Positions 33,516 to 61,514 of a stretch of DNA of 62,072 nt are shown piece after piece (within the stretch, counting starts at the first letter, position 1; each line of letters opens with the position of its first letter). The notes beneath the pieces were generated by a model. The model was not told the origin of the DNA and made no database searches. It saw nothing but the letters and a program-made list of their open reading frames with translations. The stretch is from an uncultured Bifidobacteriaceae bacterium (lineage in GTDB: Bacteria > Verrucomicrobiota > Verrucomicrobiia > Limisphaerales > UBA11358), in NCBI GenBank assembly GCA_964475285.1, contig CAYYWB010000002.1, positions 1-62,072 of the forward strand, read 5' to 3'. A program made the position numbers and the translations under genes.

Positions 33516-33557
33516 AAGCTAGGTGAGGAGCCGGTCCTTCGCCATGGGGTGTAACCC
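33516..33557 (-). promoter_or_regulatory. bipartite promoter-like motif P1
   Basis: Minus strand reads GGGTTACACCCCATGGCG-N18-TAGCTT, upstream of the BON operon. Confidence 0.6.
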
Positions 33558-33564
33558 TACCGGT

Positions 33565-34011
33565 TCAAGGCGCGATTTTGTCGCTCACCCACTGGCGCGC
33601 CGTATTGATGCCGTCCTTCGTCGCGTCGTAAGCTTTCGAGAACCCGGCTTTGACACTGTCCCAGGTGGACTCGGTGGCGTTTTTGGCGTCGTCCAGTTGT
33701 TTGTTCAACTGCGCCGCCTGGTCGCGCAATGCCTGAAGCTTGGGCTTGGCCCCGGCCTTGACTGCGTCGCTGGAGCTGTCAATCTTGGCGGAGAGCTGGT
33801 CCAAATCCTTGTTGAGCGCATCCAATTGGGCCTGCATGGCCGTGACGAATTCAGCCTTCTGCGCGAAGGTGTAATCCTTCATGTCCTGCGCGGCCTGCTT
33901 GGTTTCGGTTTGAACCTTCTCAATCTGTTGAGTCGTGCTTTGCTGCTTCCCGCATCCCACCGCAAAAGCGGCGATGGAAAGGACGGTGATGGCCCATGTT
34001 TTGTTTTTCAT
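33565..34011 (-). CDS. lipoprotein with a coiled-coil region
   Basis: MKNKTWAITVLSIAAFAVGCGKQ lipobox, followed by a Q/K/A-rich helical sequence. Confidence 0.7.
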   Translation of the reverse strand: MKNKTWAITVLSIAAFAVGCGKQQSTTQQIEKVQTETKQAAQDMKDYTFAQKAEFVTAMQAQLDALNKDLDQLSAKIDSSSDAVKAGAKPKLQALRDQAAQLNKQLDDAKNATESTWDSVKAGFSKAYDATKDGINTARQWVSDKIAP

Positions 34012-34085
34012 AATTGTGATTTCGGTTGATTTGTCTGGATGACGGATTGCGTCCCGCACCCAATTTTGGTTTCGTTGCAAATGTA

Positions 34086-34128
34086 ACGCTACGCCGTCCC
34101 GCGGCACCTTGCCATCAGGTGTAACCAG
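34086..34128 (-). promoter_or_regulatory. bipartite promoter-like motif P2
   Basis: Minus strand reads CTGGTTACACCTGATGGCA-N18-TAGCGT, upstream of the lipoprotein gene. Confidence 0.55.
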
Positions 34129-34325
34129 AATATGATTCGAGGCCCGGTCCAGCCGGGGACCGGTCAAACCGACGGGAATCGGGAACGGGCAGATCCAATT
34201 CACCCGCCGCGCGCTAAACTTAACGAACAACCCGGTCAAAACGACGAACAGCGCGAACATTTTAACGAACGACACATATTTGAATCGTGCCTCCCCACGC
34301 TGGCTGCCACTTGTTTAACGGGCTG

Positions 34326-35273
34326 TCAACCTTGCGGCACGGGGAGTTGTTCGAGGTTCGCGCCTTCACGCTGCTGGATGGTGGCTTCGACGCGCGGCAC
34401 ATACATTTGTGTTTCGGCTGGCAGATGTCCGGCGATGCCGTCGTAACTGTCCGTTTTGTAGCGGTCCAGAAGTTTCTGCACCCTGCCTTCACCGGCGTTG
34501 TAGGCCGCCAGGGCCAGCCGCCAGTCCTTGAAACGGTCGTGAAGATATTTCAGATACTGCGCGGACGCGGTCGCGCTTGGTTCCGGCTGATAACGCTGGT
34601 CGCGCGGCCACAGGGAAAGACCAAACCTTTTGGCCGTGTCCGGCATCAATTGAAACATTCCCGCCGCCCCCGCCGGACTCAAGGCGCGCCGGTCAAATCC
34701 CGATTCCACCTCCGCCACCCAGACCAGTTCCGGCGGAATCTTTTGCGCGGCGAAAACCGGCTTCAACTCCGGCACATATTCATTTGCCGATGCCGGCCAC
34801 GGACTGACGGAAACTTTTTTCACCCAAAGTTCGCGTTCCTTTTGCGGCGGAGGGTTGGGAACCGGCTGGGGCGGCTGGTTGGTTTCAACCGCCGGTGGCG
34901 GAATCGTGAGCCGGATTTCGTCCGCGACATCCAGATAAGCCATCCGCGCCTTGAGCCACGCGGCGAACGGCCGGGTTTCCTCGCGGTTTTCCAGCAACGG
35001 CAGAACGGCTTGGGCCGTCTGCCGCAACGCCGCCATGTCCACCACGTAGTCGCCTTGGAAGCGCTGCTGCGCGTCACGGAAAAATTGCCGCACCACGGGG
35101 TCGTCCACATCGGGAAGCGCGTTGAGAACGTTCGTGTCGAGATTGTCCCGCGCCCATTGTTGCGCGCCCTGGATGAGGTCCGGAAGTGTGACGGTGTCGT
35201 CCTGCGCCCGCGCCACCAGCAAGCCTGCCGGAAGCAACGCAAGAATGAACAGGGCGCGTTTCATGTTGGACAT
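34326..35273 (-). CDS. secreted lytic transglycosylase (SLT domain)
   Basis: VAEVESGFDRRALSPAGAAGMFQLMPDTA (catalytic E-S motif) and AAYNAGEGRV. Confidence 0.85.
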   Translation of the reverse strand: MSNMKRALFILALLPAGLLVARAQDDTVTLPDLIQGAQQWARDNLDTNVLNALPDVDDPVVRQFFRDAQQRFQGDYVVDMAALRQTAQAVLPLLENREETRPFAAWLKARMAYLDVADEIRLTIPPPAVETNQPPQPVPNPPPQKERELWVKKVSVSPWPASANEYVPELKPVFAAQKIPPELVWVAEVESGFDRRALSPAGAAGMFQLMPDTAKRFGLSLWPRDQRYQPEPSATASAQYLKYLHDRFKDWRLALAAYNAGEGRVQKLLDRYKTDSYDGIAGHLPAETQMYVPRVEATIQQREGANLEQLPVPQG

Positions 35274-35277
35274 CGAA

Positions 35278-35601
35278 TCAAGGCAGCCTCAATTTTTCGT
35301 CAACACCCGGCCTCCCCTGCGCGGTTTCGATCAACTCCCGGACGCGGCGCGCGTCCGCCTTCCGATGACCGTGGCTGGCCAGCGGGTCGGTGCCGCCGGT
35401 GGATTCAATCAAAATGTCCGACCAGATGATTCCCGTCTTGATGTGGACGGATGCAACCTTCGTGATGCTGATGCTGATCTCGTCGCGGCTGAACCACGAC
35501 CGTTTATGCCGGGTGACCGCCTTGTCCGTCACCTCGATAATCGTGGGGAACAGAAAATTGCCGCGCGTCAGCCGGCTCGCTTGAAATGTTTCCGAAGGCA
35601 T
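35278..35601 (-). CDS. bacterial PH-domain-like protein (tentative)
   Basis: The pattern FPTIIEVTDKAVTRHKRSWFSRDEISISITKVASVHIKTGIIWSDILIES resembles bPH-type domains. Start chosen at MPSETF. Confidence 0.45.
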   Translation of the reverse strand: MPSETFQASRLTRGNFLFPTIIEVTDKAVTRHKRSWFSRDEISISITKVASVHIKTGIIWSDILIESTGGTDPLASHGHRKADARRVRELIETAQGRPGVDEKLRLP

Positions 35602-35629: not shown

Positions 35630-36094
35630 TCAGCCCTGTGCGGCTGGTTCAATTTTTGCCAGGAAACCATCTCCACCGCCAGCACGATTGTCTCCCGCGG
35701 GCGTGGCGACCGTGTTGCCCAGGCGGGACTCCAGCAGTTTCGTGACAATTTGACGGCATTCCTCGCGCCGCCGGTCCAACTTCACGCGAAAGGCCACGCC
35801 AAGTCCCGCAAAAGCCACGAGGCTGATCAACGATCCCAGACCCAGGGCATAAATAAGATTCACGATGGATTGCGGCGCGTTGTCGGGAAAGTTGACCACC
35901 AAAATCGTCCCATAGCCCAGGGCAGCCACCGCCATCACAGCCAACATGGCCATGAGCCAAGCCGCGCGCCACGCGCAGTGCGCGTCGCGCTGAATCCGAA
36001 CGATCTCATCCATCAGTTCCTGCCGCCGGGCGCTACCGTCGTAACGGATGCATTCCCTTAGAAACTCCGTGTGTTTTTTGTGGTCACTCATCAT
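35630..36094 (-). CDS. membrane protein, unknown function
   Basis: 154 aa with two central hydrophobic helices. First gene behind motif P3. Confidence 0.55.
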   Translation of the reverse strand: MMSDHKKHTEFLRECIRYDGSARRQELMDEIVRIQRDAHCAWRAAWLMAMLAVMAVAALGYGTILVVNFPDNAPQSIVNLIYALGLGSLISLVAFAGLGVAFRVKLDRRREECRQIVTKLLESRLGNTVATPAGDNRAGGGDGFLAKIEPAAQG

Positions 36095-36151: not shown

Positions 36152-36193
36152 ATGCTACGCCGCCGCCCGGCTTGCCGCCATGGGGTATAACCC
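36152..36193 (-). promoter_or_regulatory. bipartite promoter-like motif P3
   Basis: Minus strand reads GGGTTATACCCCATGGCG-N18-TAGCAT. Confidence 0.6.
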
Positions 36194-36310
36194 TACCGCG
36201 GGTCATTCATGGCCATCTCCAAAAAGCCCATTGATCCAACGGACAGGACCTGGATTTTAGAATGAAAAAGCGCCGGCAGACTTCCGCCGGCGCCGCGAGG
36301 GGAACAATGA

Positions 36311-36853
36311 TTAAAAGGCAAACCGCACACCGAGCCGGGCGAAGCCATAATACCTGGCTTCATCTGGCAGCACGCCGCGGGCGTCAACAAACACGCCCAC
36401 ATGCGGGGTGAAGCGGTATTCGATGCCCCCGCCAGCCTGGGCAAACCATTCTTTGAGCGCATCAAACTGGCGTCCGCCGCCGCCAAAGACGTAGGGGGCG
36501 AATCCACTCTGGCCCAGCGGGAGGCGCAGGGTCAAATTGGCCGAGGCGTTGTCTATGAAGGTTCCCGTCGTGTTTTCAGAATAGGCCTCGGCGCTGATGC
36601 CGATGTTTTGGGTGAAGAAATAATTGATCCCCGCTCCGGCGCCCAGACGGGTGTTGTGCCGGATCCTCGCATTGGAAGGATGATCAATGGTGTATTTCCC
36701 TATGGAAGCGGTCCCGAACCCGTCCAGTGACAATTCATTGGCCCGGAAAAGGTCTTCCTGAACGGTCTGGTTGTTGACTGTGGTGTCCTGGCCCAAGACT
36801 GACGTTGCGGCCAGCATCAGGATTGTTCCGCCGATGGTTAATTTGTTTTTCAT
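36311..36853 (-). CDS. outer-membrane beta-barrel protein (OmpW/OmpA-beta-barrel-like)
   Basis: Signal peptide MKNKLTIGGTILMLAATSVLGQD, alternating beta-strand pattern, and a C-terminal ...GVRFAF aromatic terminus. Confidence 0.75.
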   Translation of the reverse strand: MKNKLTIGGTILMLAATSVLGQDTTVNNQTVQEDLFRANELSLDGFGTASIGKYTIDHPSNARIRHNTRLGAGAGINYFFTQNIGISAEAYSENTTGTFIDNASANLTLRLPLGQSGFAPYVFGGGGRQFDALKEWFAQAGGGIEYRFTPHVGVFVDARGVLPDEARYYGFARLGVRFAF

Positions 36854-36890: not shown

Positions 36891-36932
36891 ACATTACAGC
36901 CTTGGCTGGATTGCATCCATGGGGTGTAACCC
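36891..36932 (-). promoter_or_regulatory. bipartite promoter-like motif P4
   Basis: Minus strand reads GGGTTACACCCCATGGAT-N18-TAATGT, upstream of the OM barrel gene. Confidence 0.6.
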
Positions 36933-37007
36933 TACCGCGCATCTCGGATGGTGTTCCCGGAATAATTTGTCCTCCCGCTGCGGACAAATGAGCCGGCCTG
37001 CGTCCAT

Positions 37008-37051
37008 GGGGTGTTCACCCCATATACAAGTTGAATCAATTATCCGATATT
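37008..37051 (+). promoter_or_regulatory. bipartite promoter-like motif P5 (near-palindromic box 1)
   Basis: GGGGTGTTCACCCCATATAC-N18-GATATT. On the other strand the box reads GGGGTGAACACCCCATGGACG. It lies in the divergent region before the kinase operon. Confidence 0.5.
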
Positions 37052-37122: not shown

Positions 37123-37821
37123 ATGAAACAAAAATTAACCGGGTTGTCCCAACGATATGTCACGACGTTGCGCAAACACCTGAAGGCGGGGCCGCGCGCC
37201 AGTCTGCAACCGGCGTTGGGACTGGGATGCCGGGCGGTCGCTCTCGGTCTGGAGACGCTGGATCTGGCCCGGATTCACGAGCGGGCCGTCACGACGCTGG
37301 AACTATCCAGCCTCAAAAATGGGTTCCTCAAGCGGGCGGAGATTTTTTTTTCCGAGGCCATCATTCCGATTGTCGAGACGCACCGCGCCGCGCGGCAAAG
37401 CAAGATTCAACTGAACCAGTTGAACGAGGCGCTGGGCCGGCGCACGGCGGAACTGGCCGTCACCCACCGCCAGTTGAAACGCGGCATCCTCCGGCGCAAG
37501 AGCGTGGAAGCCGCCCTCAAAAAAAGCGGCGAACATTACACCAAACTGTTGAAGGATTCCCTGCAACTTCAGGAAGGATTGCGGCAACTGACGCATCAGG
37601 TTCTCGCGGGGCAGGAGGATGAACGCAGGAAGATCAGCCGTGAACTTCAGAATGAAATCGCGCAGACATTGCTGGGCATCAATGTCCGGCTGTTGACGTT
37701 GAAGCAGGAGGCGCGGACCAACACCAAGGGTCTCAAGAATGAAATCGCCAGCACGCAGCGGCTCGTGCTAAAATCGGCCAAGTCCGTGCGGCGGGTCGCC
37801 CGTGAATATAGAAACGCATGA
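37123..37821 (+). CDS. kinase-like protein with sensor and DHp (HisKA_3-like) regions but no phospho-acceptor His and no ATPase domain
   Basis: Paralogous to the next gene over its whole length. The H-box reads EDERRKISRELQNEIAQTL (Q where the paralog has H). It ends right after the DHp helices. ATGA overlap downstream. Alternative start at 37069. Confidence 0.7.
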   Translation: MKQKLTGLSQRYVTTLRKHLKAGPRASLQPALGLGCRAVALGLETLDLARIHERAVTTLELSSLKNGFLKRAEIFFSEAIIPIVETHRAARQSKIQLNQLNEALGRRTAELAVTHRQLKRGILRRKSVEAALKKSGEHYTKLLKDSLQLQEGLRQLTHQVLAGQEDERRKISRELQNEIAQTLLGINVRLLTLKQEARTNTKGLKNEIASTQRLVLKSAKSVRRVAREYRNA

Positions 37822-38990
37822 AACGCGAACTTTTCAATTTGTCACGACGCTATCAGGAAGCGTTGCGGGCGCACTTGAAACAGGGCCGCTCGGCCAGCCC
37901 GGAATCGGCGCGCGGCGTGGGCAGCAAGGCCCTGGCCGCCGGGCTGGAGACGCTGGATCTGGCCAAGCTCCACGAGCAAACCCTTGTCACGGAAGTGTTG
38001 CCGGGCTGCCCGGCCGGCAAACGCGCCGCGCTCATCAAACAGGCGGGGGCTTTCTTTGCCGTGGCCATCGCTCCCATCCTGAAAACGCATCACAGCGCGC
38101 AGGAGGCCGAAGTCCACCTTAAAAAATTCATCGAAGCGTTGAGCCAGCGCACGGTGGAACTGGCCGCCTCGAACCTGGAGTTGAAACAGGAAATCCTCCA
38201 GCGCAAAACGGCGGAGGAGGCGCTCAAAAAAAGCGAGCGCCATTACTCGCAGTTGCTGAAACAGTCGGACAGCCTGCAGGAGCAGTTGCGGCGGCTGTCC
38301 CGCCAGATTCTTTCGGCGCAGGAGGATGAGCGGAGAAACATCAGCCGCGAATTGCATGATGTCATCGCCCAGACCCTGACCGGCATCAACGTCCGGTTGT
38401 CGGCCCTGGCCAAGGAGGCGGCCATCAACACCAAGGGTCTTGACCGCAACATCGCCCGCACGCAGCGGCTGGTGGAAAAATCGGTGGAAATCGTGCATCA
38501 GTTTGCCCGCGAATTGCGCCCGGCGGTGCTGGACGATCTGGGGTTGATCCCCGCACTACATTCGTTCGTGAAAATATTTTCCAAGCGGACGCGCATCCTC
38601 GTTCACTTGAAGGCCTTTGCGGAAGTGGAACAACTGCCCATCGCCAAGCGAACGGTGCTCTTTCGCGTCGCGCAGGAGGCGCTCACCAATGTCGCCCGCC
38701 ATGCGCAGGCCAGCCGGGTGGAGGTGAGCATCCAGAAATTGCCGGATTCCATTTGCATGAAAATAACCGACGACGGCAAATCGTTCCAGGTGGACCGTGT
38801 GTTGCACGGGAAAGGCAGCAAACGCCTGGGCCTGCTCGGCATGAGGGAACGGCTGGAAATGGTCGGGGGTCATTTTGGCGTCGAGTCCGTTCAAGGCAAA
38901 GGCACCACCGTCATTGCCCAACTTCCGATCGGCAAAGCCGCGCGGGGGGGGGAGGAACCGCTGATGGCGTCCGTTGACACCAAGCCTTGA
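37818..38990 (+). CDS. cytoplasmic HisKA_3-type sensor histidine kinase (NarX/DegS class)
   Basis: EDERRNISRELHDVIAQTL H-box, then HATPase_c motifs EALTNVARHA, ITDDGKSF and GLLGMRERLEMVGG. Confidence 0.85.
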   Translation: MKRELFNLSRRYQEALRAHLKQGRSASPESARGVGSKALAAGLETLDLAKLHEQTLVTEVLPGCPAGKRAALIKQAGAFFAVAIAPILKTHHSAQEAEVHLKKFIEALSQRTVELAASNLELKQEILQRKTAEEALKKSERHYSQLLKQSDSLQEQLRRLSRQILSAQEDERRNISRELHDVIAQTLTGINVRLSALAKEAAINTKGLDRNIARTQRLVEKSVEIVHQFARELRPAVLDDLGLIPALHSFVKIFSKRTRILVHLKAFAEVEQLPIAKRTVLFRVAQEALTNVARHAQASRVEVSIQKLPDSICMKITDDGKSFQVDRVLHGKGSKRLGLLGMRERLEMVGGHFGVESVQGKGTTVIAQLPIGKAARGGEEPLMASVDTKP

Positions 38991-38996
38991 ATTTTT

Positions 38997-39503
38997 ATGA
39001 AACGCATTTTCATTTTGCTGGCGCTGTTCGCCGTCGCTTGGGGCGATGCCCACGCCGCCCCGGCTCCAACCAACTCTGACGCGGCCGGTCGTGTTCTCAT
39101 GATTGATTCCAGTTCCATGCCGGTTGGCGCGGGCAATGCCACGCTGATCATCGGTCCGCTCCAGCGCACGAACGGCATTTACACGGGCGATTACAAGCTC
39201 AAGGTGTTTCCCTGGTTCTTAAAAAACGAAAAGGGGCGGCTGGCCATCGTCGTTTCGGACGAGTCGCTGGCCGAGGCCGGCCGGGGCAAGGTCGTGACGA
39301 TCGCCGGGACCGCCACCACCAGCGGCAAAAGCGGCCGGACCCGGGCCGTCGCAGCCATCGCCACGCCGGTCAACGGAGATCGCGGAACGCTCAAGCTGTG
39401 GTTCACGGCGGGAACCCGGGAAATGACCTTCGAGCCGGCCTACCACTTTGCCGGAAATGAGAAGGCGCTGGTCCTGGCGCGGGCGGCTGAAATCAAACCT
39501 TGA
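38997..39503 (+). CDS. secreted protein of unknown function inside the two-component operon
   Basis: Signal peptide MKRIFILLALFAVAWGDAHA. Flanked by identical 20-bp gene junctions. Confidence 0.6.
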   Translation: MKRIFILLALFAVAWGDAHAAPAPTNSDAAGRVLMIDSSSMPVGAGNATLIIGPLQRTNGIYTGDYKLKVFPWFLKNEKGRLAIVVSDESLAEAGRGKVVTIAGTATTSGKSGRTRAVAAIATPVNGDRGTLKLWFTAGTREMTFEPAYHFAGNEKALVLARAAEIKP

Positions 39504-39509
39504 ATTTTT

Positions 39510-40187
39510 ATGAAACGAATCACTGTTCTGCTGGCGGAAGACCATACCTTTGTGCGCGAGGGATTTCGCAAGATGCTCGAAATGGAAGACGACCTCGAAG
39601 TGGCCGGCGAGGCGCAGGACGGGCGACAGGCGGTCGCGCTGGCCAAAAAACTTCAACCCAACGTGGTGTTGATGGACATCGCCATGCCGTTGCTCAATGG
39701 TCTGCAAGCCACCCGGCAGATTCTCAAAGCCAACCCGGCCGTCAAAGTGCTCATGCTTTCCGCGCACAGCGACGACGCGTATGTCCAAAACGCGACCGAG
39801 TCCGGCGCGGTGGGATTTCTGCTCAAACAAACCTCCGCCCACGACGTGTGCCGGGCCATCCGGGAAGTCCAGAAGGGAAGGACATTTTTCAGCCCCTCCA
39901 TTTCCCGGCGTCAGGACCGCATCCATCCGCTGTCGCCCGACCGCGATGGGGGGTTCACGAAGAAAGCCGCCCCGTTGACGTCGCGCGAGATGGAAGTGCT
40001 CCAACTGATTGCCGAAGGCAAGGCCAACAAGGAAACCGCGTCGGAACTCGGCATCGGCATCAAGACCGTCGAGAAGCATCGCGAGCATGTCATGCAGAAG
40101 CTGGACATCCACGACACCGCCGGACTCACCCGTTACGCCATCAGCGCGGGCATCATCGAGAGCAGCGTCCAGTTGACCATCGTCTAG
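39510..40187 (+). CDS. NarL/FixJ-family response regulator (REC plus LuxR-type HTH)
   Basis: VLLAEDH...VVLMDIAMPLLNG...KVLMLSAH receiver motifs, and LTSREMEVLQLIAEGKANKETASELGIGIKTVEKHR HTH. Confidence 0.9.
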   Translation: MKRITVLLAEDHTFVREGFRKMLEMEDDLEVAGEAQDGRQAVALAKKLQPNVVLMDIAMPLLNGLQATRQILKANPAVKVLMLSAHSDDAYVQNATESGAVGFLLKQTSAHDVCRAIREVQKGRTFFSPSISRRQDRIHPLSPDRDGGFTKKAAPLTSREMEVLQLIAEGKANKETASELGIGIKTVEKHREHVMQKLDIHDTAGLTRYAISAGIIESSVQLTIV

Positions 40188-40654: not shown

Positions 40655-40743
40655 TCTGCACAAAGGGAGCATTCTGCAAATCTGTTAATCCCGTTGGAAC
40701 AACCCGCCTCCGGCGCGGTTTCAACGAAAGGCGAAAGGCTTCT

Positions 40744-40784
40744 GGTTACACCCCATGGCGGCGGCGCGTTCTCCGGATTACTCT
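40744..40784 (+). promoter_or_regulatory. bipartite promoter-like motif P6
   Basis: GGTTACACCCCATGGCG-N18-TACTCT. The ATG at 40791 lies 6 nt after the hexamer. Confidence 0.65.
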
Positions 40785-40790
40785 CATACC

Positions 40791-41285
40791 ATGATTAACA
40801 AAAAACATTACTTCAAAACAAACATTACCAACAAGGCCGGGGTCGTGCTGGGCGCCGTGCTGCTGGCGGCGCTGACCGAAAGCGCGGGTTACGCCGGCGG
40901 GGCGACCGTCGGGATAGACCTGACACCGATCGTGGTGGTGGCTCCTCCCGTGGCAGTGGCAGCTCCGGCGGTTGTGGCGCCGGTGGTCGTGGTGCAAGAC
41001 AACTACGTTTATTACCCCAGCTACGGCATCTATTACAACAGCGACCGGCGCCAATACGCCTATCTGGAAAATGGCGCGTGGGTTACGGCATCGGCACCGC
41101 AGGGCGTCTCGGTTGACGTGCTGCTGGCTTCGCCGTCAGTGAACATGGACTGGCATGATTCCCCGGAAAAACATCACGCGGACATACTCAAGCGGTATCC
41201 GAAGGATTGGAAGTCTTCCGATGAGCATCATGACCAGAAAGATGAGCGGAAGCCGGGTCCTCCGGAAGGCGACAAGAAACATTGA
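40791..41285 (+). CDS. secreted/membrane-anchored protein, unknown function (paralog of 44896)
   Basis: MINKKHYFKTNITNKAGVVLGAVLLAALT signal/anchor, a Val/Pro/Ala-rich stretch, and an acidic/His-rich tail. Confidence 0.6.
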   Translation: MINKKHYFKTNITNKAGVVLGAVLLAALTESAGYAGGATVGIDLTPIVVVAPPVAVAAPAVVAPVVVVQDNYVYYPSYGIYYNSDRRQYAYLENGAWVTASAPQGVSVDVLLASPSVNMDWHDSPEKHHADILKRYPKDWKSSDEHHDQKDERKPGPPEGDKKH

Positions 41286-41342
41286 TGTCACACGGAAACA
41301 ATGATGGCGATTGAATTGCCACTTCAAAAGGAAAGACAAACC

Positions 41343-41447
41343 ATGCATCTATTATTCACGCCGGTTTTGGGCAGTGCGATCTATATTGGCGGAGGCGGGC
41401 TTGGTCTCGTTCTCCTCATCGTCGTTCTGATCCTGATATTCCGTTAA
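41343..41447 (+). CDS. possible 34-aa hydrophobic peptide
   Basis: MHLLFTPVLGSAIYIGGGGLGLVLLIVVLILIFR. The GGLGLVL..IVLILL tail resembles small stress membrane peptides. Unverified. Confidence 0.25.
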   Translation: MHLLFTPVLGSAIYIGGGGLGLVLLIVVLILIFR

Positions 41448-42454: not shown

Positions 42455-42462
42455 ATTCACAC

Positions 42463-42507
42463 GGGTAAAACACCCCATATTCCTTTCGGGGAACATCTCC
42501 ATATATC
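42463..42507 (+). promoter_or_regulatory. bipartite promoter-like motif P7
   Basis: GGGTAAAACACCCCATATTC-N18/19-ATATAT/TATATC, upstream of a small ORF and the Wzm/Wzt genes. Confidence 0.5.
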
Positions 42508-52403: not shown

Positions 52404-52423
52404 TAGTAGAACACCCCATGGCG
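52404..52423 (+). promoter_or_regulatory. box 1 of the motif, site P14
   Basis: TAGTAGAACACCCCATGGCG preceded by AAATCCGGCAT. The downstream hexamer is unclear (CATGAT at N19). About 100 nt before the hybrid kinase start. Confidence 0.45.
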
Positions 52424-52526
52424 GCCATGCATTATTTCTGCGCATGATTGCGCCATAACTTCCCAAAGGCTGTAGGTTTTCGCGGACCAAACCTTGCGGG
52501 GAAAATGAAATGGCGGTGACAGCATC

Positions 52527-55241
52527 ATGAACAGTGAAAATGAAAACGGGAACGCGACTGGCAACGGGGCGCAAATTGAGCAGGCGCTCCGTGCCTCCGA
52601 ACTGCGTTACCGGCGGCTGTTTGAAACGGCACAGGACGGCATCCTGATTCTGGATGCGGACACCGGGCGCGTGAATGATGTCAACCCGTTCCTGACCAAA
52701 CTGCTGGGGTTTTCGCGTGACGAGGTGATCGGCAAAACCGTCGGCGGGTTGAGTCCGTTCAAGGACGTCGTGTCCAACAAGGCCATGTTGAAGCGGCTGC
52801 AAAAGGACGGGTATGTCCGCTACGAAGACCTGCCGCTGGAAACGAGGGATGGCCACCACGTTGACGTGGAGTTTGTCAGCAACGTGTATCAAGCCGGCGA
52901 CAAAATGGTAATCCAATGCAACATCCGCGACATCACGGAGCGCAAGCGGGCGGAAGAGGCGTTGCACTCTTCACAACAGATGCTCGGAGAAATCATCAAT
53001 TCCCTGCCCGCGCGGGTGTTCTGGAAGGACAAGAATCTCATTTTTCTCGGCTGTAATGAGGCGTTCGCGCGCGATGCGGGATTTGCCGGGCCGAAGGACG
53101 TCATCGGCAAGGATGATTACCGGATGGGATGGAGCAAGCAGGCGGAAAAGTATCGCAGCGATGACCGTCAGGTCGTAGAGAACGGATGTTCCAAGCTGCT
53201 CATTGAAGAAGCCCAGACGACCCCCGAAGGGAAGAACATCACGCTGCTTACAAGCAAAATACCCCTGCGCGATGCCAAGGGGGAGATCATCGGCATGCTC
53301 GGAACGTATCTGGACATCACCCCGCGCAAGCGGGCGGAAGAGGCGCTGCGACAGAGCCGGGAGGAATTCAAGAATTTGTTCGACAATGCCCCCGTTGGGT
53401 TTCACGAGGTGGACGCCGAAGGACGCCTGATCCGCATCAACAACACCGAACTGACAATGCTGGGATACTCCGCCGAAGAATTGCCGGGGCAGTTTGTCTG
53501 GAAACTTTCCGCAGATGAAGAACCGTCCCGCCGGGCCGTGCTGGCGAAATTGGGCGGGGAACCGCCGCCATCGCAAGGTTACGAGCGGAAATTCCGCAGG
53601 AAAGACGGCTCCGCCATTCCGGTGTTGGTTAATGACCGGTTACTGAAACGGGAAGATGGCGCCATCATCGGCATTCACTCGACAATTCAAGACATCACCG
53701 GGCGCAAGGAGATGGAAGCATCCCGCGACCGGCTGGCCATGGCCGTGGAGCAGGCCGCCGAGACCGTCGTGATTACCGATACCAACGGCACAATCCTTTA
53801 TGCCAACCCGGCATTTGAAACAACTTCCGGCTACACCCGCGCGGAAGCCCTCGGCCAGAATCCCCGCGTGTTCAAGAGCGGAAGGCAGGATGATGAATTT
53901 TACCGCCGGATGTGGGAGGTTCTCGGACGCGGGGAAACATGGTCCGGCCATTTTATCAACCGGCGCAAGGATGGCGTGTTTTACGAGGAGGAAGCCACCA
54001 TCTCGCCCATACGGGACACCGCCGGCAAGGTTGTCAATTATGTGGCTGTGAAACACGACGTGACGCGGGAAGTGCAACTCGAGGCGCAATTCCGCCAGTC
54101 CCAAAAGATGGATGCCATCGGCAAGCTGGCTGGCGGCGTGGCGCATGACTTCAACAACATCCTGGCTATCATCCAAATGCAGGCCGATCTGCTGAAGACC
54201 GAGGATGGGATCACCCCGGCGCAATTGGAGACCGCCATGGAGATTGGCAAGGCCGTCCAGCGCGCGAGCGCACTCACCCGCCAGTTGCTGCTGTTCAGCC
54301 GGAAACAGATGCTGCAATTGCGCGATCTGGATTTGAACGAATCCATCAACGAGATGACCAAAATGCTGCGGCGCACCCTCGGCGAAAACATCAAGTTGCA
54401 GTTCAAATTCATGATGCAAGACCTGTTCACCCACGCCGACGCGGGGATGATTGATCAAGTGCTGATGAACCTCGCGGTGAACGCCCGCGACGCCATGCCC
54501 AATGGCGGCCAGCTCATCATTGAAACTTCCGCCGTGGAACTGGATAAGGCCGCGGCGGCACAAATTCCCCATGCCCGTCCCGGCTCATTTGTGTGTTTGA
54601 GCGTGCGCGACACCGGCTGCGGCATCCCGCCTGAAAATTTCCAAAGAATTTTTGAGCCGTTCTTCACCACCAAGGACGTCGGCAAAGGCACCGGCCTCGG
54701 CCTGGCCACCGTTTTCGGCATCGTTCAGTTGCATCAAGGCTGGATCGGATTCCATAGCCAGAGCGGTTGCGGAACGACCTTCCGCATTTATCTTCCGCAA
54801 CTGGCCGGAATGACCGGAAAAAAACCAGAGCAACACGCGCTGGCTGCCGTTCGCGGCGGTGTTGAAACAATTCTGCTCGTTGAAGATGATGCGGCCCTGC
54901 GCGCTTCCGTGCGCAAAATCCTTTCTCAACTCGGCTATTGCGTGCTTGAGGCTGTCAACGGCATCGAGGCGCTGAAAATCTGGGAACAGTATCGCGACGG
55001 AATCCATTTGCTACTCACCGATGTGGTCATGCCCGGCGGAATGTCGGGGATAGATTTGGGCGAACGGCTTTTGAAGGAGAATCCGAAATTGAAGGTGATC
55101 TACAACAGCGGTTACAGCGCGGAAGTTGCCGGAAAGGATTTTCCATTGAAGGAAGGTGTCAACTTTCTCATCAAGCCATTTCAGACGCAAGCGCTCGCGC
55201 AAACCGTGCGGCAGATGCTGGATGCGGGAAATGTGTCATGA
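52527..55241 (+). CDS. multi-PAS hybrid sensor histidine kinase (PAS x4-5, HisKA, HATPase_c, REC)
   Basis: Repeated PAS cores, H-box [14 protein letters not shown], HATPase [10 protein letters not shown] and GTGLGLATV, and a C-terminal receiver ILLVEDD...[14 protein letters not shown]. Confidence 0.9.
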
Positions 55242-56014: not shown

Positions 56015-56062
56015 AACTCGTTTGGCAAAGCTTGTTTCCGACAACCCCTTGAATTTTTCATC

Positions 56063-56104
56063 GGGTTACACCCCATAGCGAAGTCCACGCCCATCGCGTA
56101 ACGT
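56063..56104 (+). promoter_or_regulatory. bipartite promoter-like motif P15
   Basis: GGGTTACACCCCATAGCG-N18-TAACGT. The ATG at 56113 lies 8 nt after the hexamer. Confidence 0.6.
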
Positions 56105-56301: not shown

Positions 56302-56431
56302 CCGGGGCTTGCCCCGTGGAATAGCAACCTCTGCGGCGCACCACCAAGCCAACGGACGAGAATTCCACCAGGCGCGCCCCACGACATGAGGCGGTTACTC
56401 CACGGGGCAAAGAATTCATCGGGTCCGAGAT

Positions 56432-56476
56432 GGGGTGAACACCGTATGGCAGTTATGCGTTCCGCCGGCTTATATT
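56432..56476 (+). promoter_or_regulatory. bipartite promoter-like motif P16
   Basis: GGGGTGAACACCGTATGGCA-N19-TATATT. The ATG at 56484 lies 7 nt after the hexamer. Confidence 0.6.
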
Positions 56477-56682: not shown

Positions 56683-58746
56683 TTGAAAATCCAGCCCGGC
56701 CATGTCATCCGAAAATCGGCGCTGGTGGTTCTTGCCGCGCTGTCGTTGTGCCATTCGCCATTTGCCCGCGGGCGGGAGTCTGCCATCAGCTCCACAAATC
56801 ACGAATCACAAATCACGAATCACGCATCGCTGATTGTTCTTCCCAAATCCGTTCCCGACCCCATCGAACCGTTCAACCGCGCGATGTGGGGCTTCAATGT
56901 GGGGCTGATGACCGACGTGATCAAACCGACGGGCCGGGCTTACCGGTTCGTCGTCGCAAAACCGATCCGGACCGGAATCGGGAATTTTGGCCGGAACCTC
57001 ACCTATCCGGGACGGGCGATCAACAACCTGCTTCAGGAAAAATGGAGCGGAGCGCGCGATGAATCCTGGCGGTTCGTTTGCAACACAACGGTCGGCGTGG
57101 CCGGGTTCTGGGACGTGGCGACAAAGTGGAAGATTCCGAAATCGGACGCGGATTTTGGACAGACGTTCGGCCAATGGGGCTGGAGGCCGCATTTCTTTTT
57201 GATGCTGCCGATCTACGGGCCGAGCAACGATCGGGACACCGTCGGCCTGGCTGCCGACACGGCGGCCAATCCGCTGCTTTACATCGCCCCCTACAAATTC
57301 GTCGCGGGCAATCCGCTCACATATCTCGGCCCTTACAGTTATCTCAATTACGGGATCATGTATAACAATCTCTCCGACAGCGTGGATGGTTATGTGCGGT
57401 TCAGCCAGGCCGAGATGGATCCGTATTCCGAGATTCAATACGCCTGGACTTTTGAGCGGGCGAACCGTGTGGCGAACTTCCAGGTGAAGGGAAAACAGGA
57501 TCCGGCTTCGCTGGAGACCCTCGAATCCGTCTTCTTCACCTACAAAGACCCTGAATTCCCCGGCCGCGGCAAGACCCGGTCGGTTTTGATTCCGGCGACG
57601 GGCGGGAAATTGAAATTTACATTCTGGTTGCAGCCGGGACAGGCGAACGTGGTCTATATCATTCCCGGCCTGGGCGGTCATCGGCTGGCCGAAGCCTCAC
57701 TGGCGCTGGCCGAGCTGGTCTACAAAAATGGCTTCTCCGCCGTGCTGGTCAGCAGCCCGTTCAACTTCGAGTTCATGGAAAGCGCCTCGACTACGGCGTT
57801 GCCGGCGTATCTGCCGGTGGATGGCCGCGACATGGACGTGGCGCTCACGGAAATTGATCGTCGCTTGAACAAATTGTATCCGGACCGGCTCGGCAACAAG
57901 GCGTTGATGGGCTATTCGATGGGCGCATTTCAATCCTTGTTCGTCGCGGCCACCGGCCCGACAAACCGGTATTGCGTCGTGACGAAGGAGCGGGTGCTGC
58001 GCTTTCCCAAAGGAAAACAGGGTGTGAAAGAAGTGAGAATCGCGCCCGTCACGAATCAGGTGCCGTTGATTCATTTTGACCGCTACGTCGCCATCAGCCC
58101 TCCGGTCCGGTTGATGCAGGGAGTGAACAAGCTGGACGAATTTTTCAATGCGCCCCTGGGCTGGCCAGCCACCAACCGGACTGACGACATCGAAAACACA
58201 TTTCTCAAGGTGGCCGCCTTGAGCCAGGGCACGCTCACGCCGCAAACCTCGCTGCCATTCAGCGCCATCGAATCCAAGTTTCTCATCGGCCTCACCTTCC
58301 GGCTCACGCTGCGGGACATTATTTACAGCAGCCAGCAAAGAAATAATCAGGGCGTCCTGCATCACCCGATCTCGAATTGGCGGCGCGACCCGGTGTATCA
58401 GGAAATCCTCCAGTATTCCTACCAGGATTATTTTGATAAATTCGCAATCCCGTATTATTCGGCCCGTGGCCTTGCCGCCCCGGCGGAAACGCTGGAAAAA
58501 GCCGGCGATTTGCGGACGTATGACGCCAGCCTGCGCGCCAACCCGGACATCCGCGTCATCTGCAATCAAAACGATTTTCTGCTGACAACCGACGATCTGG
58601 CCTGGCTCCACGCCACGTTCGGCCCGGACAAATTGACCGTCTTCCCGCAAGGCGGTCATTTGGGAAACCTTTCCAATCCGGCGGTGCAAAGGGCCATCCT
58701 CGCGGCGCTCACGCCGATGAGGCCGCCCGAACCCAAATCGAATTGA
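56683..58746 (+). CDS. fusion of an MlaA/VacJ-like lipoprotein domain with a C-terminal alpha/beta-hydrolase domain
   Basis: N-terminus: DPIEPFNRAMWGFNVGL...TTVGVAGFWDVA...FGQWGW...LPIYGPSNDRD (VacJ signature). C-terminus: GYSMGAF (GxSxG) with later D and H candidates. TTG start at 56683 gives the signal peptide MKIQPGHVIRKSALVVLAALSLC. Confidence 0.75.
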   Translation: MKIQPGHVIRKSALVVLAALSLCHSPFARGRESAISSTNHESQITNHASLIVLPKSVPDPIEPFNRAMWGFNVGLMTDVIKPTGRAYRFVVAKPIRTGIGNFGRNLTYPGRAINNLLQEKWSGARDESWRFVCNTTVGVAGFWDVATKWKIPKSDADFGQTFGQWGWRPHFFLMLPIYGPSNDRDTVGLAADTAANPLLYIAPYKFVAGNPLTYLGPYSYLNYGIMYNNLSDSVDGYVRFSQAEMDPYSEIQYAWTFERANRVANFQVKGKQDPASLETLESVFFTYKDPEFPGRGKTRSVLIPATGGKLKFTFWLQPGQANVVYIIPGLGGHRLAEASLALAELVYKNGFSAVLVSSPFNFEFMESASTTALPAYLPVDGRDMDVALTEIDRRLNKLYPDRLGNKALMGYSMGAFQSLFVAATGPTNRYCVVTKERVLRFPKGKQGVKEVRIAPVTNQVPLIHFDRYVAISPPVRLMQGVNKLDEFFNAPLGWPATNRTDDIENTFLKVAALSQGTLTPQTSLPFSAIESKFLIGLTFRLTLRDIIYSSQQRNNQGVLHHPISNWRRDPVYQEILQYSYQDYFDKFAIPYYSARGLAAPAETLEKAGDLRTYDASLRANPDIRVICNQNDFLLTTDDLAWLHATFGPDKLTVFPQGGHLGNLSNPAVQRAILAALTPMRPPEPKSN

Positions 58747-59728: not shown

Positions 59729-59763
59729 CATTTCCATTTCGGAGTCCGGGCTATCCTTTGGTA

Positions 59764-59805
59764 GGGTAACACCCCATGGCTCCGGGAGGATTTCGGACGC
59801 ATGAT
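59764..59805 (+). promoter_or_regulatory. bipartite promoter-like motif P17
   Basis: GGGTAACACCCCATGGCT-N18-CATGAT, upstream of the CBM48-like and yqjDEK-like genes. Confidence 0.5.
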
Positions 59806-59816: not shown

Positions 59817-60320
59817 ATGAACGCTTTTCAACTGAACAAAAATCAACCGTCCCTTGAATCCCCAACCATGAAACACAACCACAACCACGACAACGCCCAC
59901 AGCGCCGGCCCTCAACTCGTGCCTGTCCGCTTTGAATTCACCCATCCAACCGCCAAAACCGTTTGCCTGGCGGGAACCTTCAACCACTGGCAGCCCGAAG
60001 CCAAGACGCTGCATGCCACCGGTGCCGGCATCTGGTGGAAGGAAACGGCGCTGGCTCCCGGCACCTACGAATACTGCCTCGTGGTGGACGGCCAGTGGAT
60101 GCCCGATCCTCTGGCCAGGGAATCCGTGGCCAATCCGTTCGGCGGCAGAAACTCGATTTTGACGGTGGCCAGTTCGCCGGAAGTCGCGCATCGGGCCGAC
60201 GCCGCGAATCTGCCGCTCCAAAACGACCGTTTTAGTGACGCCATCGCCGGGGATCATATCGTCGCCGGAGAAAATTTACCGTTGAAAAACATCAACAAAC
60301 CAAAGAACAAAAAAACATGA
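59817..60320 (+). CDS. glycogen-binding (AMPK-beta/CBM48-like) domain protein
   Basis: VRFEFTHPTAKTVCLAGTFNHWQPE...LAPGTYEYCLVVDGQWMPDP matches the AMPK1_CBM pattern. Confidence 0.7.
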   Translation: MNAFQLNKNQPSLESPTMKHNHNHDNAHSAGPQLVPVRFEFTHPTAKTVCLAGTFNHWQPEAKTLHATGAGIWWKETALAPGTYEYCLVVDGQWMPDPLARESVANPFGGRNSILTVASSPEVAHRADAANLPLQNDRFSDAIAGDHIVAGENLPLKNINKPKNKKT

Positions 60321-60622
60321 ACAAAGAAACACAAGCAGTCACCAATGACATCGGACAACTGGCCGAAGACGCCCGCGCGTTGATGGCCGCCACCGCCGAC
60401 GTGGCCGGTGAAAAAGTCGGGGAAGCCCGCAAGCGGCTCGCCGCCGCGCTGGAACGCGCCAAGGAAATCGCGGGCAATGTCCGCGACAAGGCGGTCGCCG
60501 GCGCCAAAGCGGCCGACGAAGCCGTGCATGAACATCCCTACAAAGCCATCGCCATCGGCGTTGGCGTCGGGGCGATTCTCGGCTTTCTTCTCGCGCGCCG
60601 GTGCGCCCGCAACTGCGATTGA
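60317..60622 (+). CDS. DUF883 (ElaB/YqjD-like) membrane-anchored stress protein
   Basis: Helical Ala/Lys/Glu-rich N-terminus and C-terminal anchor HPYKAIAIGVGVGAILGFLLARR. ATGA overlap upstream. Confidence 0.75.
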   Translation: MNKETQAVTNDIGQLAEDARALMAATADVAGEKVGEARKRLAAALERAKEIAGNVRDKAVAGAKAADEAVHEHPYKAIAIGVGVGAILGFLLARRCARNCD

Positions 60623-60629
60623 TCACGCC

Positions 60630-61019
60630 ATGGAAGAATCCACCGTCAGCCTGGGGCAACTGGGCGCGACCTCGAAAACGTTAGCGCGCCGGCTGCTGAC
60701 AATCGGGGAAAACCGGCTTGAACTGTTGACGGTGGAAGTGCAGGAGGAACGCGAGCGTCTCCTGCACGCTTTTCTTCTGGCCCTCGGTGTGGCGGCGTTT
60801 GGTCTGCTTGCCGGCTTGACGCTCACGGCAGCCATCGTGGTTTTGTTGTGGGCATGGTCGTCCGTGGCCGCGCTTCTGATATTGACCGCCCTTTACGGAG
60901 CGGCGGGGATTTGTCTTTGGCGGCGGCTCACCGGACTGCTGCGTGACTGGCAGACGCTTTCCGCCTCATTGGATCAGCTCCGAAAGGACCGCGAATGTCT
61001 GGAAAAAATCTTCGCCTGA
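60630..61019 (+). CDS. YqjE-like (phage-holin-family/DUF1469-like) membrane protein
   Basis: LLTIGENRLELLTVEVQEERERLL, then two hydrophobic helices. Same order as in the E. coli yqjD-yqjE-yqjK operon. Confidence 0.6.
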   Translation: MEESTVSLGQLGATSKTLARRLLTIGENRLELLTVEVQEERERLLHAFLLALGVAAFGLLAGLTLTAAIVVLLWAWSSVAALLILTALYGAAGICLWRRLTGLLRDWQTLSASLDQLRKDRECLEKIFA

Positions 61020-61327
61020 ATTCGCTCGAATCGCGCAAGCAATTGTTGATCGCGGAAAGCGAACTCAACCGCGCACAGCTCGTTCAAGAATGGCAGGTGA
61101 TGCGCGCTGAAGTTCACTCGCTCACCAGCCAGGCCAGAAGCATCAGTTCCATTGCGTCGGCGGTCGCAATGCTGGTCGCCGGACTGTCATCCCTGCGTCA
61201 CAAAAAATCCGCGCCCGCTGCCGAAAAACCTTCATGGTGGCGGACCATTCTGAAGGACGCGGGACTTGTCAGCTCCTTCTGGTCGGAATTCCGTTCGCAG
61301 GGTCGCGAGCGAAAAAGCAATAAATAG
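60995..61327 (+). CDS. YqjK-like protein
   Basis: LESRKQLLIAESELNRAQLVQEW... followed by one hydrophobic helix, in the third position of the yqjDEK-like operon. Confidence 0.5.
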   Translation: MSGKNLRLNSLESRKQLLIAESELNRAQLVQEWQVMRAEVHSLTSQARSISSIASAVAMLVAGLSSLRHKKSAPAAEKPSWWRTILKDAGLVSSFWSEFRSQGRERKSNK

Positions 61328-61396
61328 TCGGCTGTGCGGCGGACACGCGTTGCCCTCGCTGAAAATTGGCTTTGCCGCCGGTTTCGTCCTCCTCGT

Positions 61397-61441
61397 CGTC
61401 CTCGGTCTCGTAATCGAACATTTTTATCGAGGGCGAGGACG
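61397..61441 (+). terminator. imperfect hairpin built from short CGTCCT-type repeats
   Basis: cgtcctcggtctcg pairs with cgagggcgaggacg (12 of 14 bp) around a 17-nt loop. No T-tract. Confidence 0.35.
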
Positions 61442-61472
61442 AGAACGAAAGACGAGGATGATTTGGCAGGTA

Positions 61473-61514
61473 GGGTTTCACCCCATGTCGCATGCGTTCG
61501 AAATAGCCTAGGCT
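61473..61514 (+). promoter_or_regulatory. bipartite promoter-like motif P18
   Basis: GGGTTTCACCCCATGTCG-N18-TAGGCT, upstream of the GT4 gene. Confidence 0.55.

Follow-up and report, generated by a model that had tools for sequence, protein, structure and literature searches.

The DNA analysed here is a stretch of 62,072 nucleotides (contig CAYYWB010000002.1 of assembly GCA_964475285.1), hereafter the window, which matches peat metagenome contigs and which, to judge from its best identities, is from a Limisphaerales-like verrucomicrobium. Between positions 33,516 and 61,514 it carries repeated copies of a promoter-like element, composed of a box of ~20 bases and a -10-like hexamer, which together are termed a site. 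All coordinates are those of the whole window, and the two limits of the island are the first and the last -10 hexamer. As annotated with Pfam and NCBIfam, the genes of the island encode a BON protein, DUF5670 and DUF3185 proteins, an sll1863-type lipoprotein, an SLT transglycosylase, an outer-membrane (OM) barrel, a protein with a weak LTXXQ match, the products of two HisKA_3/NarL operons, REC-only proteins, a PAS hybrid kinase, MarC, an MlaA fusion, a trio of CBM48, DUF883 and holin-X proteins, and a GT4 glycosyltransferase. This agrees with the stress, envelope and signalling gene content listed in the original prediction, which was made from the sequence of this stretch. An exact-protein look-up with the MlaA fusion gave no match, and the start codon used was probably wrong. 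The gene map was obtained by codon-usage scoring of open reading frames (ORFs), refined with signal peptides and orthologues, so that the starts are our own calls.

The window contains 10 matches to the 18-mer GGGTWACACCCCATGGCG when up to 3 mismatches are allowed, and dinucleotide-preserving shuffles gave an expectation of 0.08. From the clear copies a position weight matrix (PWM) was built, which recovered 18 sites, or 20 if both strands of two full palindromes are counted, all within 33,516-61,514 and with the consensus (GGTA)GGGTWACACCCCATGGCG. The scores were 12.9-28 for 17 of them and 9.9 for the weak site at 42465. No box was detected by the PWM in the first 32 kb of the window, where the top score (10.1) fell inside a gene. 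All 18 boxes are intergenic, in a region of which intergenic DNA makes up 17.8% (P ~3e-14, on our own gene map), and all 18 aim at the next gene on their own strand. The box at 34110-34127 counts as intergenic only with the lipoprotein start at 34011, which is backed by a signal peptide and by orthologues of the lipoprotein. A strict TAnnnT hexamer lies exactly 18 nt past the box in 11 sites (P ~1e-18), and weaker hexamers (GATATT and AACAAT) are found at this distance in two more. Two sites (52013 and 56434) have TAnnnT at 19 nt, and CATGAT is located at 18 nt past the box at 59764 and at 19 nt past that at 52406. The repetition of the motif, its confinement to intergenic DNA, its orientation, its absence from 0-32 kb and these hexamer spacings had all been claimed before and were reproduced here. 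The original prediction overlooked a 4-nt extension of the box, GGTA, on its upstream side, the existence of two site classes, and leaderless start codons that locate the transcription start.

The motif had been proposed to wire together this 28-kb island, a view that is too narrow. One genome per species was scanned in 185,579 species with the pattern GGTWACACCCCATGG-N20-TANNNT, and at least 120 stretches matched, whereas ~35 chance matches would be expected in the whole collection (an estimate that assumes uniform base composition). The 120 matches listed, chosen by motif alone and sampled as 8-kb pieces, are referred to as the motif-first loci. By record title, 89 of the matches listed are from Verrucomicrobiota, including Limisphaerales/subdivision 3, Opitutales, Verrucomicrobiales (Prosthecobacter, Luteolibacter), Akkermansiaceae with A. 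muciniphila, Methylacidiphilum and Chthoniobacterales. Five are titled Lentisphaerae/Victivallales, two Kiritimatiellae, two 'PVC group', one Sedimentisphaerales (a planctomycete) and seven Acidobacteriota (a GC-rich lineage), and four are unclassified; the single Shewanella match among those listed is probably due to chance. Nine further matches listed are titled Bifidobacteriaceae, Bifidobacterium, Klebsiella or Saccharimonadales (L023, L028, L035, L039, L040, L045, L076, L077 and L107). Seven of these nine encode orthologues 55-92% identical to proteins of the window, and none was recorded for L040 and L076; judging from such sequence matches, the contigs with Bifidobacteriaceae, Klebsiella or Saccharimonadales titles were probably mis-binned or mislabelled. 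The motif is thus found across Verrucomicrobiota and allied phyla, over many contigs. In several metagenome-assembled genomes the sites fall on different contigs, and therefore the regulon is dispersed in those genomes.

The gene families behind the box recur with it. BON/OsmY proteins, the sll1863-type lipoprotein, the MINKKH protein, the Thivi_2564 peptide, DUF5670, the small His-rich lipoprotein, DUF883 and REC proteins are encoded downstream of the box elsewhere as they are in the window; CsbD, PRC-barrel, DUF748, ice-binding-like, Mn-catalase and phosphoketolase genes also follow it in other genomes. Thirteen BON orthologues (the window and 12 loci, with 53-77% amino-acid identity) were compared, and every one is preceded by a box. 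For 12, the class A box (see below) and its -10 are all that the upstream DNA has in common; the BON locus L058 has merely a weaker variant box, located further upstream. Lipoprotein and PRC-barrel orthologues are preceded by the box even in A. muciniphila and Methylacidiphilum, and the Akkermansia muciniphila orthologue of the small His-rich lipoprotein (56113 in the window) is also behind a box. By its annotated families, this gene set is of the general stress and envelope response type, and co-induction of the box genes by stress may be inferred from it. We regard it as very probable that the sites are bona fide co-regulated promoters; the original claim that box and hexamer form the promoter of a stress/envelope/signalling regulon is thus supported.

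Alignments revealed that the box extends 4 nt upstream (GGTA) and that two classes of site can be told apart. The first, class A, has the asymmetric form GGTAGGGT(T/A)AC-ACCCCATGGCG, and the second, class B, is a 7-4-7 palindrome, ATGGGGT-N4-ACCCCAT(G/A)GC, which is near-perfect in 45 sites. The promoter-proximal half-site, ACCCCAT, is common to both. The distal part of class A resembles the palindromic arm moved 1 nt inward, yet it has its own conserved GGTA. Of the 229 class A sites having TAnnnT at 17-20 nt, 195 have it at 18 nt, and in class B the hexamer was at 19 nt (44 sites), 18 nt (36 sites) or 17 nt (12 sites). The two classes differ in the genes that they precede, and class is maintained among orthologues. 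When sites were assigned by orthologue, 54 class A versus 4 class B sites were upstream of effector genes, and 8 class A versus 25 class B sites were upstream of REC-only regulators and of the small ORF before the MlaA fusion (Fisher's exact P = 1.2e-11). Orthologues of the REC-only gene 48262-48774 of the window have 17 class B versus 7 class A sites.

In the window, class A promoters on the reverse strand precede the BON/OsmY gene 32685-33467 (site 33516-33561; box 33540-33557 plus GGTA, -10 TAGCTT at 33516-33521), the sll1863-type stress lipoprotein gene 33565-34011 (34086-34131; box 34110-34127, -10 TAGCGT), the membrane protein gene 35630-36094, with bPH and SLT genes after it (36152-36197; box 36176-36193, -10 TAGCAT), and the OM beta-barrel gene 36311-36853 (36891-36936; box 36915-36932, -10 TAATGT). 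On the forward strand, the class A promoter at 40739-40784 (box 40743-40760, -10 TACTCT) serves the gene 40791-41285, the ATG of which is 6 nt past the hexamer and is predicted to be leaderless. The one at 44843-44888 (box 44847-44864, -10 TATTCT) is followed by 44896-45276, which is paralogous to the 40791 gene. Downstream of the class A promoter at 48856-48901 (box 48860-48877, -10 TAAGCT) lies the operon 48946-51081, which encodes a Thivi_2564 peptide, a PAS-HisKA_3 kinase and a response regulator, RR2. The class A promoter at 56059-56104 (box 56063-56080, -10 TAACGT) is followed by a predicted leaderless ATG at 56113, the start of the small His-rich lipoprotein, which opens with a textbook lipoprotein signal peptide, MKNILLIIAFASLLSTTGC. 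A class A box with CATGAT at 18 nt (59760-59805; box 59764-59781) precedes the genes 59868-61019 for CBM48, DUF883 and holin-X-like (yqjDE-like) proteins, and the last class A promoter (61469-61514; box 61473-61490, -10 TAGGCT) is upstream of the GT4 glycosyltransferase gene starting at 61536.

The class B promoters on the forward strand are at 46782-46827 (box 46786-46803, -10 TAAACT), with a predicted leaderless ATG at 46836 opening the REC-REC gene 46836-47780; at 48209-48254 (box 48213-48230, -10 TACTTT), with a predicted leaderless ATG at 48262 opening the REC-only gene 48262-48774; at 52009-52055 (box 52013-52030, -10 TAATTT at 19 nt), with a predicted leaderless ATG at 52062 and an 88-aa ORF; and at 56430-56476 (box 56434-56451, -10 TATATT at 19 nt), with a predicted leaderless ATG at 56484 of a small ORF, after which comes the MlaA-fusion gene 56683-58746. 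A class B palindromic box on the reverse strand (site 46637-46686; box 46661-46686, -10 AACAAT) precedes the small ORF 46364-46588. The box at 52406-52423 (forward strand, site 52402-52448) has CATGAT at 19 nt and lies upstream of the PAS hybrid histidine kinase gene 52527-55241. The least certain site is a weak class B-like box on the forward strand (42461-42506; box 42465-42482) with a poor -10, ATATAT. The class B variant at 37002-37051 is described below with the operon that it precedes.

The hexamer behaves as a -10 element. In the window, six ATGs (40791, 46836, 48262, 52062, 56113 and 56484) and one TTG (44896) that open the downstream ORF sit 6-8 nt past the hexamer. In other genomes, the ATG was 6, 7 or 8 nt past the hexamer in 17, 14 and 7, respectively, of 126 pattern-selected sites, so that 38 of the 126 (~30%) fell in this peak, against a background of ~2.6 per offset (P = 1.5e-16). 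The same ATG, at the same offset, opens the gene in five orthologues of 40791, and in general the start codon is often 30-32 nt past the box. Since the pattern used for the genome scan included TAnnnT, the hexamer was re-checked on sites that had not been selected by it. At 206 bare ACCCCAT occurrences outside the pattern, A was present at +30 in 51% and T at +34 in 51%, with a background of 21%. These frequencies indicate that the hexamer is a genuine -10 of the housekeeping (sigma-70) type. Transcription is predicted to start 6-8 nt past the hexamer, because the ATG peak falls there, where a sigma-70-type -10 predicts the start; this position is often the A of the start codon, which implies that many of the mRNAs would be leaderless. 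In Akkermansia muciniphila, leaderless transcripts account for ~10% of transcription starts (PMC4782308).

Two further observations concern single loci of the island. The 40791 paralogue, 44896-45276, has its TTG at the leaderless position and an aberrant hydrophobic C-terminal half, and may be a decaying duplicate. In the region 41301-41447, an 8-bp hairpin (41304-41322, ATGGCGA-N5-TTGCCAC) with an A-rich tail is conserved, and it is followed by an unannotated ORF (41343-41447) for a 34-aa hydrophobic peptide, MHLLFTPVLGSAIYIGGGGLGLVLLIVVLILIFR. In at least 14 other loci this hairpin and the peptide are again found together, directly behind a class A box with its -10 and at the predicted 5' end of the mRNA, and compensatory changes are seen in 5 of the 8 pairs. 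The hairpin may act as a 5' stem-loop that stabilises the mRNA or is regulatory, or as an operator.

With the last T of the hexamer numbered -7 and the transcription start taken from the ATG peak, the conserved block of ~20-22 bp extends from about -53 to -31, and it is separated from TAnnnT by a non-conserved gap of 18-19 nt. In class A the right arm occupies ~-41 to -35 and the dyad is centred at ~-43; in class B these positions are ~-42 to -36 and ~-44.5. The hexamer at the -35 position, ATGGCG, is a poor match to TTGACA and is part of the conserved box. A dimeric transcription factor is favoured as the reader of the box because the 20-22 bp block is a near-perfect inverted repeat in dozens of sites, and a class II activator is favoured by the dyad and its centre at ~-43 to -44.5, by a -10 of the housekeeping type and by the fact that no sigma factor is linked. 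We consider it likely that a dimeric activator, and not a sigma factor, reads the box. Either an alternative sigma factor or sigma-70 with a class II activator had been proposed originally; the second fits the data better and the first less well.

All called genes of the window (~70 predicted ORFs) were scanned, and the only DNA-binding proteins encoded are two response regulators, RR1 (39510-40187) and RR2 (50368-51081), both with Response_reg and GerE domains. No hidden DNA-binding protein was found among the unannotated ORFs of the island (the 86-aa and 168-aa proteins and the small ORFs). Each NarL-type regulator is encoded in an operon with a HisKA_3 plus HATPase_c kinase, 37818-38990 for RR1 and 49265-50404 for RR2. 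RR1 aligns over its full length to VraR, DesR and NarL, with VraR as the top match (E = 2e-43). Its operon (37123-40187, forward strand), the candidate for the master-regulator operon, encodes a DHp-only HisKA_3 protein (37123-37821), the HisKA_3 kinase (37818-38990), a secreted 168-aa protein and RR1. The 37123-37821 product, of 232 aa, has an RsbU_N-like N-terminus and a HisKA_3 dimerisation/phosphoacceptor (DHp) domain, without an ATPase domain. The adjoining full kinase has the same RsbU_N-like N-terminal domain, and the pair is kept in most orthologous loci. The DHp-only protein may modulate the kinase or serve as a partner in a heterodimer.

The linkage of this operon to the box was analysed from both sides. 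Among the 120 motif-first loci listed, an RR1 operon (at least 50% identity) was present in 10-12, from several orders and the GC-rich lineage, where a single-copy gene of a ~5 Mb genome, sampled in 8-kb pieces, should turn up in ~0.2. In the regulator-first set, 80 metagenome contigs with RR1 orthologues of 74-90% identity, the kinase-RR1 pairing is kept in 33-39 of the 80 loci, many of which are truncated contigs. All 33 RR1 contigs of at least 8 kb hold 1-10 boxes, which amounts to 191 boxes in 589 kb, versus 1 in the reversed-sequence control. In 15 of 20 orthologous RR1 operons with enough upstream DNA, a box lies ~95-154 nt (mostly ~105-114 nt) before the first gene; in nine of those operons it is a variant, ..ACCCCATA(T/G)-N18-(G/A)ATnnT, on the operon strand. 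The corresponding site in the window is the class B variant (palindromic) at 37002-37051 on the forward strand (box ATGGGGTGTTCACCCCATATAC, 37002-37027; -10 GATATT), the promoter of the RsbU_N/HisKA_3-NarL operon and a putative autoregulation site. This RR1-operon variant (37002-37051 and the L128-L201 promoters) ends in ATAC and not in GGCG, its -10 is typically GATnTT or AATnnT, and it may set a different activation threshold for autoregulation.

The RR1 recognition helix, IKTVEKHR, is invariant, as the box is, over several Verrucomicrobial orders and the GC-66% lineage; RR2 has PKTVEYHRM at this position. In the GC-66% lineage, an RsbU_N-HisKA_3 kinase and a NarL regulator are again found among boxes. 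As a lead only, the half-site matches the NarL heptamer, TACYYMT, at 5 of 7 positions. RR2 and its PAS kinase are rarely box-linked beyond close relatives, and they look like a lineage-specific member of the regulon. Both NarL-type regulators had been put forward as autoregulating binders of the motif. For the 39510-40187 system this has held up, in that it is the best candidate; the 50368-51081 system, being rarely box-linked elsewhere, fares less well. From these comparisons of sequence and linkage we would name RR1 as the activator that reads the box, an identification that we hold with a slight lean in its favour at most. The assignment of RR1 to class B and of RR2 to class A, each by the promoter of its own operon, was tried and rejected.

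Several points weigh against the model of RR1 as activator of these promoters. The support comes from sequence statistics and gene linkage; linkage does not separate a regulator from a target, and BON genes are box-linked about as often as the RR1 operon. The promoters of RR1 operons are of mixed or variant type, on which the assignment of the two classes to the two regulators failed. The left part of class A, GGTAGGGT, is itself conserved and 1 nt nearer to the right arm, so that class A is not a mere degenerate palindrome, and a single homodimer does not obviously explain this arm. Finally, a group-2-like sigma gene lies behind a box in the GC-rich lineage, and its product could help to read the promoters there.

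It is conceivable, if unlikely, that another transcription factor encoded elsewhere binds the box, with the RR1 and RR2 systems being targets of the regulon and not its master. Linkage is no proof of regulation, as the BON genes illustrate, the asymmetric left arm of class A suggests a second specificity, and the view is limited to 8-21 kb around each site. Against this, ~1.4 Mb of motif-centred and RR1-centred DNA revealed no other recurrent DNA-binding family near boxes, and two-component proteins form the largest protein cluster, being present in 38 of the 120 motif-first loci listed. The RR1 helix-turn-helix is invariant over exactly those lineages in which the box is invariant, and a conserved box also lies before the RR1 operon itself, a typical feature of two-component systems that autoregulate.

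The box could also be an extended -35 read by a dedicated alternative sigma factor, in the manner of sigma-B, sigma-S or EcfG, with TAnnnT as its -10. The fixed spacing from box to -10 and the general-stress-like gene set would agree with this, and so would a sigma factor of 385-390 aa (regions 1.2-4) encoded directly behind a class A box in five loci of the GC-66% Acidobacteriota-labelled lineage (L063 4402-5661, L116 6522-7770, L015 2-952, L205 9921-11158 and L206 9936-11077), a placement that would be expected of an autoregulated stress sigma factor. Genes for extracytoplasmic function (ECF) sigma factors lie beside boxes in L058 and L063. Yet a block of ~20-22 bp that forms a 7-4-7 palindrome in 45 sites is not what one sigma region 4 reads, namely ~6 bp and no dyad, and TAnnnT is a -10 of the housekeeping form. 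In the linked sigma factor the DNA-contacting residues are RpoD-like (region 2.4 FSTYAFWWIKQ; region 4.2 SRERVRQ), which presumably predict a -35 of the TTGACA type and not this box. No sigma gene was found among all called genes of the window; the 589 kb around Verrucomicrobial RR1 orthologues contained no group 1-3 sigma gene and one ECF fragment; and phmmer with RpoE detected only three ECF genes in ~1.4 Mb. Box-linked sigma factors of the group-1-3 type were present in only three of the 120 motif-first loci listed, all Acidobacteriota-labelled. Taken together, these data make a dedicated sigma factor improbable as the general reader of the box.

The sigma factor of the GC-66% lineage is group-2-like, with many homologues. 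In the long contigs L205 and L206 its gene lies amid boxes (7 and 9 per 21 kb), with DUF5670, PRC, YtxH and M48 genes as neighbours. Genes for RsbU_N-HisKA_3 proteins and a GerE-type regulator adjoin it, as a full kinase-response regulator pair in L205 and apparently fragmented in L206. This arrangement suggests that a stress sigma factor belongs to the regulon in that lineage. Three related candidates were rejected. The L031 sigma factor, considered as a Verrucomicrobial counterpart, is encoded by an RpoD-like gene with no box upstream. An EcfG-like promoter, GGAAC-N16-17-CGTT, is not apparent, CGTT being 17 nt past GGTWAC in 3 window sites only and the region being unconserved elsewhere; for a sigma-54 -24/-12 promoter, there is no conserved GC 10 nt past GG.

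Alternatively, the box might be a repressor operator that occludes the -35 region, with induction by derepression. A box spanning the -35 region is in a frequent repressor location, and palindromic operators are typical. There is no TTGACA-like -35 here, however, and with ATGGCG at that spacing a weak promoter would be expected without an activator; the strict phasing of box and -10 in hundreds of sites across phyla is a need of class II activation and not of occlusion. We therefore regard repression as very unlikely. That the many near-identical short intergenic copies are a non-regulatory repeat (REP/MITE-like), assembly redundancy or an RNA element is hardly credible, since their flanks are unrelated and only box and hexamer are conserved, the orientation always matches the downstream gene, the position of the start codon places the box upstream of the transcript, the box is kept upstream of orthologous genes in different phyla, and Rfam gave no match in 33-62 kb.

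The reading that we favour is that each box with its hexamer forms a promoter which depends on an activator, most likely RR1, and which belongs to a conserved regulon for general stress and the envelope, which we judge to be somewhat more probable than not. A dimeric helix-turn-helix activator would bind the box next to, or overlapping, the poor -35 (ATGGCG) and would recruit RNA polymerase with a sigma-70-type sigma factor by class II activation. The activator would most likely be the phosphorylated form of the NarL/FixJ-type RR1 (39510-40187), fed by the two RsbU_N-like HisKA_3 proteins encoded upstream of it, and RR1 would autoregulate its operon via the variant box at 37002-37027. Class A sites would direct the effector genes. 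Expression of the REC-only proteins and of other signalling genes would be under class B sites, and these products would serve as feedback or connector modules. RR2 (50368-51081) would be a member of the regulon; its part may be that of a second, lineage-specific input, or it may pair with RR1 in heterodimers at the class A sites, which are asymmetric.

More tentatively, and with rather less confidence than we place in the promoter model itself, we propose that the box is the cis-element of a general stress response common to Verrucomicrobiota, Lentisphaerae, Kiritimatiellae, some Planctomycetota and the Acidobacteriota-labelled lineage. Its master would be RsbU_N-type HisKA_3 kinases and one NarL-type regulator, with no dedicated sigma factor. 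The circuit would have two tiers, from asymmetric sites to effectors and from 7-4-7 sites to REC-only feedback, perhaps with different dimer forms, and its output would be largely leaderless.

The first half of the window is of a different kind. From 874 to 32156 it is occupied by a biosynthetic cluster of the lipid or aryl-polyene/flexirubin-like type, in which no stress box, transcription factor or sigma factor was found. The cluster encodes an MMPL-lipid A acyltransferase fusion, LolA-like and FabA-like proteins, two acyl carrier proteins, a B12-radical SAM enzyme, a ketosynthase, ketosynthase-III/type III polyketide synthase-like enzymes, a ketoreductase, a halogenase-like flavoprotein, two AMP-ligases and an amine oxidase. 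An N6-DNA-methylase-like ORF (14185-15138), with a partial Pfam model match, lies in a low-GC dip (0.55) within the cluster and may be the remnant of a restriction-modification gene. The sole Rfam or ARAGORN match in the window is a tRNA-Glu gene (anticodon TTC) at 430-504.

A literature search revealed no description of the motif sequence, the full-text matches being unrelated primers. Likewise, no general stress response was found described for Verrucomicrobia, and nothing relevant on their sigma or NarL regulons or on Akkermansia two-component systems. What is apparently new is a phylum-spanning stress regulon that seems to be under the control of a two-component activator, has sites of two conserved architectures and often yields transcripts predicted to be leaderless. 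Soil, peat, freshwater and the gut (Akkermansia) are habitats in which Verrucomicrobiota and other PVC bacteria abound, and almost nothing is known of their gene regulation. If the proposal is true, the stress regulon could be predicted from a 20-bp signature in hundreds of genomes of uncultured organisms, and a testable master regulator is named. The sites would also provide inducible promoter parts for Akkermansia and related chassis, and start-codon annotation would be improved, since many regulon genes appear leaderless. It would also be shown that a two-component activator can take the place of an alternative sigma factor as the basis of a phylum-wide general stress response.

Parts of this arrangement are familiar from other bacteria. 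SsrB, a NarL-family regulator of Salmonella, recognizes an 18-bp 7-4-7 palindrome and tolerates a degenerate distal half-site if one heptamer stays oriented towards the gene; its sites are also found upstream of its own operon, and the site was defined by footprint-like interspecies conservation (PMC2837388). Class B is likewise a 7-4-7 palindrome, and class A keeps just the promoter-proximal heptamer intact. The half-site, however, is ACCCCAT here and mCCyTA for SsrB, and SsrB is tied to a horizontally acquired virulence island of one genus, whereas the present box is found across phyla and at stress genes. SsrB largely acts by counteracting H-NS silencing, of which there is no sign for the present box.

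DosR/DevR, the NarL-family regulator of mycobacteria, is served by the kinases DosS and DosT, is autoregulated, and induces ~50 stress or dormancy genes via a conserved motif (PMC10034137). A NarL-type regulator with two kinases, autoregulation (proposed here from sequence) and a stress output are shared with it. The two differ in motif, gene content and taxon, and in their sensors, which are heme-GAF proteins (DosS/DosT) there and RsbU_N-like and PAS proteins here. Dev boxes are palindromes of 20 bp, of which the promoter-proximal one overlaps the -35. RR1 is not an orthologue of DosR, DevR being a mid-ranking PDB match (E = 6e-22) versus VraR (2e-43). In class II activation of the LuxR/TraR type, a GerE-type dimer binds a ~20-bp dyad centred at ~-42.5 to -44.5 and replaces a poor -35. 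The centres predicted here, ~-43 for class A and ~-44.5 for class B, are similar; LuxR and TraR differ in that they sense acyl-homoserine lactones, have no receiver domain and control species-specific regulons.

In output, the system resembles the sigma-B, sigma-S and EcfG responses, with CsbD, OsmY/BON, DUF883 (YqjD/ElaB), Mn-catalase, small membrane peptides and signalling proteins behind one promoter signature. It differs from them in having an activator-type dyad and a housekeeping -10 instead of a sigma-specific -35/-10, and in that no sigma/anti-sigma module is box-linked in the Verrucomicrobiota loci scanned. The EcfG response is described as class-restricted and as having a regulon defined by a promoter motif (PMC3892343, PMC7083833). 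The closest solved homologues of RR1 are from the VraSR/LiaSR systems (VraR, over its full length), which likewise have a HisKA_3 kinase partner, are autoregulated, as is proposed here for RR1, and have envelope-related targets. VraSR and LiaSR are systems of Firmicutes, with membrane-embedded sensors, small regulons and different binding sites. From the sequence features compared here, the system would work like a class II regulon of the SsrB or DosR kind with an output like that of sigma-B, sigma-S or EcfG, and it would be a member of none of these systems, because the motif, the sensors and the taxa differ.

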